Shown here in pieces: positions 57,821 through 57,952 of a DNA stretch of 64,000 nucleotides. Origin of the DNA: Bacteroidales bacterium. GTDB lineage: Bacteria > Bacteroidota > Bacteroidia > Bacteroidales > WCHB1-69. Positions within the stretch are counted from its first letter, which is position 1, and every line of letters starts with the position of its first letter. Under the pieces are notes generated by a model. It had not been told where the DNA came from, did no database searches, and saw nothing but the letters and a program-made list of their open reading frames with translations. The stretch covers positions 15,686 through 79,685 of the forward strand of contig JBLJBB010000057.1 of the NCBI GenBank assembly GCA_047638115.1, written 5' to 3'. A program made the translations under genes and the position numbers.

Positions 57821-57862
57821 ATCTATCTATCTATCTATCTATCTATCTATCTATCTATCTAT
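57821..57862. repeat. Tetranucleotide microsatellite (ATCT) x10.5
   Basis: Read directly. 42 nt, perfect. Confidence 0.97.
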
Positions 57863-57920
57863 GTGGGTTATGCTATATAATTATTTACATTGCTCAATTC
57901 AAAAGTAATGGAGTTTGATT

Positions 57921-57952
57921 ATCCCATTAACTAAGATAAAAGTTAATGGGAT
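57921..57952 (+). promoter_or_regulatory. Leader hairpin immediately upstream of the operon start
   Basis: Perfect 11-bp stem ATCCCATTAAC / GTTAATGGGAT with a 10-nt loop, ending 6 nt before ATG at 57959. Confidence 0.5.

Follow-up and report, generated by a model that had tools for sequence, protein, structure and literature searches.

Does a tetranucleotide microsatellite in front of an outer-membrane operon adjust the expression of that operon, or is it a by-product of replication slippage in DNA that tolerates repeats? The question is raised by a stretch of 64,000 nucleotides from an uncultured Bacteroidota bacterium (hereafter the window, i.e., the whole 64 kb that was analysed), in which a perfect ATCT tract lies between promoter-like boxes and a four-gene operon that ends in a TonB-dependent receptor gene. 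A sequence-only reading of this DNA proposed that the tract marks a contingency locus. Here, we consider the tract, the leader in which it is predicted to lie, the corresponding region of a sister species and the other tandem arrays in the window, and weigh the explanations that follow from them. The coordinates of the features are collected in Table 1.

Table 1. Features of the operon and its upstream region (window coordinates)
Feature	Position	Strand	Remark
Repeat-rich junction	57429..57640		Shared with strains 99.3% identical: window up to 57428, then 57523-57640
CGCTCC-GTA-GGAGCG hairpin, T-runs on both sides	57677..57691		Bidirectional, terminator-like; within dispersed repeat 57676-57710
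Distal -7 box candidate, TATATTTG	57693-57700	+	In dispersed repeat; outside the stretch homologous to the sister species
Proximal -7 box of sigma-A type, TATTTTTG; strongest promoter candidate	57771-57778	+	Sister species: TATCTTTG
Predicted 5' leader, ~212 nt	57783..57994	+	Predicted from the -7 box
Possible 35-aa upstream ORF reading through the tract	57801..57908	+	Speculative; aligned ATG in the sister species
ATCT tract, (ATCT)10.5	57821..57862		TRF: period 4, 100% matches, no indels
Conserved 27-nt block, TTGCTCAAYTCAAAAGTAATGGAGTTT	57890..57916	+	Sister species identical except at Y
Perfect -7 box inside the 27-nt block, TACTTTTG	57907-57900	minus	Motif match
Perfect 14-bp stem with 8-nt loop	57919..57954 (57919-57932 / 57941-57954)	+	Sister species conserves it with two compensatory pairs
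Gene 1, orphan lipoprotein, 241 aa, signal peptide ending ...FVSC	57995..58720	+	Pfam/NCBIfam: no match
Gene 2, small outer-membrane beta-barrel, OMP_b-brl_2	58724..59356	+	Weak TDE1717-family match
Gene 3, DUF4249 protein	59344..60336	+	Overlaps genes 2 and 4
Gene 4, TonB-dependent receptor, CarboxypepD_reg-like and Plug domains	60323..62653	+	Domain matches

The tetranucleotide tract

The tract is 42 nt long, and no other period-4 run in the window reaches 14 nt. When the window was simulated 200 times with a first-order Markov model, period-4 runs never exceeded 17 nt. In a screen of ~910 kb of other Bacteroidota loci (minimum run 16 nt) only two further perfect tetranucleotide runs were found, a (TATT)5 and a run at the site in the sister species that is orthologous to the tract. 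The perfect 42-nt tract described by the sequence-only reading is therefore borne out, with 10.5 copies without mismatch and a length far beyond chance. This is the length and purity of a slip-prone simple sequence. The (ATCT)n repeat is also free of stop codons in all + strand frames.

The tract is present as well in three independent Logan assemblies of near-identical strains (L001, L003, and L004; 99.8-100% identity), and it is thus not an assembly artefact. Each of these three contigs starts with exactly 30 repeat bases, which we take, from the way Logan contigs are built, as the mark of a longer repeat that has collapsed in the k=31 graph. The break inside the tract after 30 bases means that the tract exceeds 30 nt in these samples and nothing more; given fixed flanks, this would correspond to at least eight full ATCT units in each of the three. 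No further copies of the locus were found when metagenome contigs were scanned with an alignment of the gene 1 lipoprotein and with a conserved 24-mer, or when viral contigs were scanned. Scanning genome contigs with a receptor alignment returned distant receptors only (~23-32% identity over the full length, rising to no more than 41% in their best short segments).

The operon and its host

The four operon genes are tightly packed or overlapping, and on the opposite strand, upstream of the operon, there is a gene for a T9SS-sorted PKD protein. The suggestion that the controlled genes are surface-exposed agrees with the lipoprotein signal peptide of gene 1, the OMP_b-brl_2 match of gene 2, the DUF4249 protein and the Plug domain of the TonB receptor. 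The products are hence envelope proteins, the class of surface or interaction determinants that contingency loci control.

In a word-indexed search of 5.8 billion sequences, the gene 1 lipoprotein is represented by two 90%-identity protein clusters only, and it is seen only in this lineage and in the sister species. Annotated copies exist in two NCBI MAGs, HGW-Bacteroidetes-19 (PKP19651.1, CVU02_02890) and HGW-Bacteroidetes-20 (PKP27700.1, CVU04_05515), and the gene is carried by contigs of 5.6-98 kb from other assemblies (HGW-19, HGW-20, a JGI/ENA contig, and an ENA contig; P0245, P0247). An AlphaFold model of the lipoprotein built with three sequences had a pLDDT of 28.9 and was unusable. 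Receptor homologues with 43-46% identity (L078 and L079), situated in other contexts, are accompanied by the DUF4249 gene only, as a DUF4249-receptor pair, and no tetranucleotide tract was found in their leaders.

The UvrC protein of the window shares 99% identity with its counterpart in "Bacteroidetes bacterium HGW-Bacteroidetes-20" and ~68% with UvrC of Lentimicrobiaceae MAGs. The host is an uncultured member of Bacteroidota belonging to the HGW-Bacteroidetes-19/20 lineage. The species is also present in wastewater metagenomes and has a low GC content (~33%). The host is an environmental groundwater/wastewater anaerobe and not a host-adapted pathogen.

Four ENA assemblies (L084, L085, L086, and L088) are 99.3% identical to the window over 44916-57428 (12.5 kb) and diverge from it at 57429-57641. 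They break in dispersed repeats, keep the block 57523-57640 at 94% identity, and continue into a peptidase S9 gene, such that the operon is absent at this site beside the T9SS gene. On this comparison, the operon belongs to the flexible genome. At the left junction, Logan contigs stop at 57502, again in dispersed repeats. A dispersed element precedes the operon in the window but follows it in the sister species, where the ruvA promoter comes next (L005 4970-5335 and L008 4749-4870, compared with 57436-57536 and 54525-54578 in the window). The reversed order of these elements means that the operon has moved or been inverted relative to ruvA between the two species.

Promoter boxes and the predicted leader

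Both boxes that were put forward earlier as promoter-like, the distal and the proximal one in Table 1, match the Bacteroidota -7 consensus TAHHTTTG. This motif is enriched in the window, with 107 sites compared to 68 +/- 8 expected, and the G of the box is usually located 5-71 nt ahead of the start codon of the other first genes. The nearest + strand boxes of the operon are situated 217 nt (proximal) and 295 nt (distal) upstream of gene 1, and no TAHHTTTG was found on the + strand between the tract and gene 1. The proximal box is conserved in the sister species, and so is the start codon of gene 1 (see below). The earlier placement of the tract between a promoter box and the start of a four-gene outer-membrane operon consequently stands.

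According to the rule that the -7 box extends from T-12 to G-5 (Baez et al., PMC6847099), the proximal box predicts a transcription start at ~57783, with ~57705 and ~57898 as less favoured positions. The leader would then be unusually long, as the median 5' UTR in Bacteroidota is 24-32 nt (PMC9723704). In the predicted transcript the ATCT tract corresponds to positions +39 to +80. It begins 43 nt downstream of the proximal box and ends 132 nt upstream of ATG 57995, and is located outside any structural ORF and not between -33 and -7.

Of the two hairpins in front of gene 1, a terminator scan returned only the terminator-like one at 57677-57691, and this hairpin probably insulates the operon from upstream transcription. 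Together with the distal -7 box TATATTTG, it forms a 35-nt dispersed element with one copy here (57676-57710) and another at 17467-17501, the two being 94% identical. This element looks like a portable terminator-promoter module.

Two other types of control found no support. An invertible promoter of the Bacteroides type is not indicated, since no inverted repeats flanking the 57771-57778 promoter were found and a Pfam scan of the seven adjacent genes revealed no recombinase. A riboswitch or other known leader RNA is rejected on the basis of Rfam, which gave no match at gathering score in the window and only chance-level matches (E >=0.6) in the region 57380-58100.

Conserved elements between the tract and gene 1

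Downstream of the tract, the leader carries the conserved 27-nt block followed by a hairpin. No perfect stem-loop in the window is longer than this hairpin, for which a free energy of -18.2 kcal/mol (z = -5.0) is predicted. In the sister species two of its pairs have changed on both sides, from U-A to C-G and from A-U to U-A. The sequence-only reading had correctly noticed a perfect hairpin at this place; however, the stem is 14 bp and not 11 bp long, and it ends four nucleotides before ATG 57959. Considered together, the conserved block and the compensated hairpin show, at the level of the two-species comparison, that the leader is functional. The sequence that follows the stem is AAAATTATGAA and contains no U-run; for want of a U-run, the hairpin is rejected as an intrinsic terminator or attenuator.

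On the minus strand, the conserved block includes TTACTTTTG, a 9-mer that is shared with the -7 box region (57397-57405) in front of the divergent T9SS gene. The minus-strand box at 57907-57900 is a possible antisense promoter inside the leader.

ATG codons at 57959 and 57995 had been listed as the first starts of the operon. The first of these is probably not the start, because from the equivalent codon in the sister species the reading frame closes after three codons. ATG 57995 matches the start called in that species and is most likely the true operon start.

In the minimum-energy fold the tract is enclosed by a stem formed by 57806-57817 and 57889-900, which is specific to the window. This stem is not conserved in the sister species, and pairing of the tract with another leader segment is therefore rejected. 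Most of the ATCT tract is unpaired in the predicted folds, with no conserved segment to pair with.

The corresponding tract in the sister species

The sole relative of the gene 1 lipoprotein (P0002, 74% identity) is encoded on a JGI contig (L005) together with the same four-gene operon. The operon DNA of the two species is 78% identical from 57722 to 62667 of the window, and across the tract the alignment of the two leaders is free of gaps. Opposite the tract, with the same length and in the same register, the sister species has a degenerate array, (ATCA/ATTA)~10, that reads ATCA ATCA ATCA ATCA ATTA ATCA ATCA ATTA ATTA and in which the longest perfect run is 4.75 units.

Each unit in the window thus differs from the corresponding unit in the sister species at one and the same position of the unit (T versus A). 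Ten independent identical substitutions are not credible, and the array must accordingly have turned over by repeated expansion and contraction since the two species split. This implies, by comparison of the two arrays, a history of past slippage at the tract. On the other hand, the interruptions in the sister species mean that high mutability has not been maintained in both lineages. Moreover, the equal length of the tract in the two species suggests that the length of the leader matters. Interruption combined with a kept total length is the pattern that would be expected of a length-constrained spacer, and these two features fit such a spacer as well as, or better than, a mutable switch under selection.

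Other tandem arrays in the window

The ATCT tract is not the only tandem array in the window. The second long perfect simple-sequence repeat, (TCGTGTGC)5.25 at 9867-9908, begins one base past the stop codon of the gene at 9188-9865, i.e., in its 3' UTR, and is located upstream of a bidirectional terminator-like hairpin (~9939-9972). Octamer arrays of the ATTAGCTY/ATTAGCAC type (period 8) are present at 18572-18608 and, on the minus strand, at 54540-54576, in both cases directly ahead of a -7 box of sigma-A type (18614-18621, for the gene that follows it, and 54535-54528, for ruvA). At the ruvA site the array is a perfect (ATTAGCAC)3.5 in one sample of the sister species and imperfect in another sample and in the window (sister-species coordinates: L008 5071-5098 and L005 about 5290-5320). 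The octamer array may be an upstream promoter module specific to this lineage.

Heptamer arrays (TAGTGAA / ATTCACT / GAATGAA) are found in both orientations at 11531-11561, 17261-17291, 17433-17464, 17925-17959, and 18453-18526, some of them adjoining GC-rich GCCGGAA(C/T)GCCCAAAA segments. They surround a 2.1-kb region that is poor in ORFs (16556-18692, no ORF of 120 aa or more) and are reminiscent of the intergenic heptamer repeats reported in some Bacteroidetes (PMC4679880). Within a coding sequence, the gene at 20418-21203 contains degenerate repeats of 27-30 nt (also 57 and 87 nt) that specify Cys/His/Lys/Asp-rich units (KDHKGCCDKG-like), and its product may be a metal-binding protein.

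These arrays indicate that tandem repetition is general in the intergenic DNA of this lineage. Given that several are situated where a contingency role is implausible, the presence of the ATCT tract as such is weak evidence of selection.

Possible roles of the tract

The explanation that we tentatively favour, at rather less than an even chance, is that the tract is a microsatellite with a history of slippage in a transcribed leader of ~212 nt and that it gives rise to graded expression of the outer-membrane operon. In this scenario, replication slippage would add or remove ATCT units, and each change would lengthen or shorten the unstructured AUCU segment that separates the mRNA 5' end from the conserved block and its hairpin. 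The most likely outcome would be a heritable, reversible, and graded shift in the level of the operon mRNA or in its translation, as for the (AGAT)n tract of uspA2 (see below); an on/off switch is less likely than a graded change. What the sequences show is the tract itself, its position relative to the conserved -7 box and the start codon, the turnover of the array since the split and the conserved leader elements downstream of it; the start site, heterogeneity in tract length at present and any effect of the tract on expression are inferred.

The idea of graded expression is supported by the enrichment of TAHHTTTG and the conservation of the proximal box, and by the upstream hairpin, which would stop read-through. 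Further support comes from the packed envelope genes, from the absence of the operon at this site in strains that are otherwise 99.3% identical, and from the uspA2 and nadA precedents. It is weakened by the lack of any observed difference in tract length, the three further samples indicating only more than 30 nt, by the interrupted tract in the sister species, by the other tandem arrays in the window, by a tract that is mostly unpaired in the predicted folds and by the nature of the organism, which is environmental, where contingency loci are little documented. The contingency locus proposed by the sequence-only reading is likewise supported in part. The layout, the past slippage, the envelope products, and the uspA2 and nadA precedents speak for it. 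Against it are a sister-species tract that is interrupted at equal length, tandem arrays elsewhere without a plausible role and the environmental host.

Almost as likely is a neutral microsatellite, that is, a slippage by-product in AT-rich intergenic DNA that tolerates repeats. The length of such a tract may drift, with hardly any influence on expression and without selection. This would account for the company of the tract in the same 64 kb (the octamer in a 3' UTR, the octamer arrays at the ruvA promoter and at one other site, and the heptamer arrays) and for its decay by point mutation in the sister species, and it agrees with a tract that is unpaired in the predicted folds and a leader without an Rfam match. 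However, a neutral hypermutable array is not expected to hold its position, register, and total length when the operon has diverged to 78% identity and the flanks in the leader have diverged as well. Nor would neutrality lead one to expect that neither the rest of the window nor ~910 kb of related loci holds another long tetranucleotide run. Should the tract prove neutral, what remains is a well-characterised microsatellite.

Less likely, and in our view improbable, is a length-constrained spacer or binding platform. Here a pyrimidine-rich, unstructured AUCW repeat of ~42 nt would be needed as such, either to separate the 5' end from the block and hairpin or to be bound by an RNase or a protein specific for single-stranded RNA. 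Selection would then preserve the length of the repeat, and its mutability would be incidental. The equal length in the two species, despite differing units and interruptions, is accommodated directly, as are the at least eight units estimated for the three further samples. In addition, tandem heptamers ahead of start codons have been proposed as S1, Csp, and Csr sites in other bacteria (PMC4679880). The comparison rests, though, on two species, the binding platform is putative, and a perfect array is the least stable means of holding a fixed length.

There is only a small chance that the tract instead flanks a promoter on its upstream side, as in nadA. The working promoter would in this case be TACATTGC (57886-57893), a box of the TAnnTTGY type with which the conserved block opens. 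Counted from this promoter, the tract would extend from about -36 to -77, and the number of units would set the spacing or phasing of upstream elements. The box is kept in the sister species as TATATTGC, TAnnTTGY boxes are used by Flavobacterium psychrophilum (PMC9723704), and in nadA putative promoters, one distal and one proximal, lie on either side of the TAAA tract (PMC2193550). Yet TAnnTTGY is not enriched in the window (97 sites versus ~130 expected) and is not positioned before genes, and conservation of the block continues for 25 nt past the 57886-57893 box. As a general promoter type in this genome TAnnTTGY is rejected, because of this missing enrichment.

A leader ORF whose frame is switched by the tract is less probable again. 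The sequence-only reading regarded the tract as non-coding. It is true that no long ORF spans it, and none of 40 aa or more was found; an ORF of 35-38 aa (57792/57801-57908) nevertheless crosses it. If ATG 57801 were translated through the tract, changes in unit number would shift the frame and move the stop, which is computed at 57878, 57906, or 57916 depending on unit number mod 3. A stop at 57916 would abut the hairpin, and melting of the hairpin and downstream expression would be altered accordingly, giving three states. Consistent with this model are the absence of stops from (ATCT)n in every + frame, the three computed stops and the A-rich context before ATG 57801. Bacteroidota dispense with a Shine-Dalgarno sequence and begin translation on A-rich leaders that lack structure (PMC6847099). 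The sister species also keeps an ATG ~20 nt before the tract, aligned with that in the window. Chance ATGs are, however, frequent in an AT-rich leader, and the ORF in the sister species is 13 codons long with its stop inside the tract, such that the arrangement is not conserved. The ORF remains putative.

Least probable of all is the far-reaching version of this scheme, in which slippage would drive a three-state translational or attenuation switch through the ATG 57801 ORF and thereby control a TonB-receptor operon in a free-living member of Bacteroidota. A variant that we consider just as far-fetched is one in which an antisense RNA from the minus-strand box 57907-57900, starting near 57895, would run through the tract as (AGAU)n and on past the sense promoter.

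Comparison with known systems

Repeat-driven phase or level variation has been documented almost entirely in host-adapted pathogens, whereas the receptor switches of Bacteroidota are DNA inversions (PMC11868660). The switching of SusC/SusD-type receptors documented in the work that is cited in PMC11868660 concerns the same phylum and the same class of controlled genes, i.e., TonB-dependent outer-membrane receptors. The inversion systems described there depend on a site-specific invertase, in contrast to the present locus with neither flanking inverted repeats nor an adjacent recombinase gene.

The tetranucleotide tracts in ORFs of Haemophilus influenzae and Neisseria (e.g., lic1 CAAT) belong to the same repeat class, have a comparable number of units, and act by slipped-strand mispairing (PMC11868660). 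They are situated inside a structural gene and cause on/off frameshifts, whereas no structural gene contains the ATCT tract.

Closer in layout is nadA of Neisseria meningitidis, in which nine TAAA units are located 130 nt upstream of the coding region with two putative promoters flanking them. The number of units varies from 4 to 12 between strains, and expression levels differ (PMC2193550). Both loci have an upstream tetranucleotide tract, and nadA is strain-variable and probably horizontally acquired. The nadA tract, however, precedes the working promoter and exerts its effect as DNA, while the better-supported promoter in the window is upstream of the tract. Moreover, of the two loci a strain series is available for nadA alone.

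The nearest counterpart is uspA2 of Moraxella catarrhalis, which carries (AGAT)n in its 5' UTR, 132 bp upstream of the ORF. The copy number ranges from 6 to 23 by strain, with up to ~3.4-fold differences in mRNA (PMC4679880, PMC7302503). Both arrays are tetranucleotides (ATCT is the reverse complement of AGAT) positioned between promoter and start codon, and an outer-membrane protein is controlled in uspA2 as well, with a graded and not an on/off effect on the mRNA. That the ATCT tract also ends 132 nt before its start codon, ATG 57995, is coincidental as a number; the layout is what the two loci share. They differ in that the RNA would be AUCU here and not AGAU, and in phylum, sigma factor, and the absence of a Shine-Dalgarno sequence. 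The host is environmental and uncultured, and, of these two loci, copy-number variation and an effect on expression have been demonstrated in uspA2 alone.

The perfect ATCT array and the decayed ATCA array of equal length amount to a natural experiment on whether selection keeps mutability or length. If graded expression is the correct explanation, expression dials of the uspA2 and nadA type would extend to a new phylum and to free-living bacteria, where selection would likely come from phages or bacteriocins that exploit TonB receptors or from a fluctuating nutrient supply.
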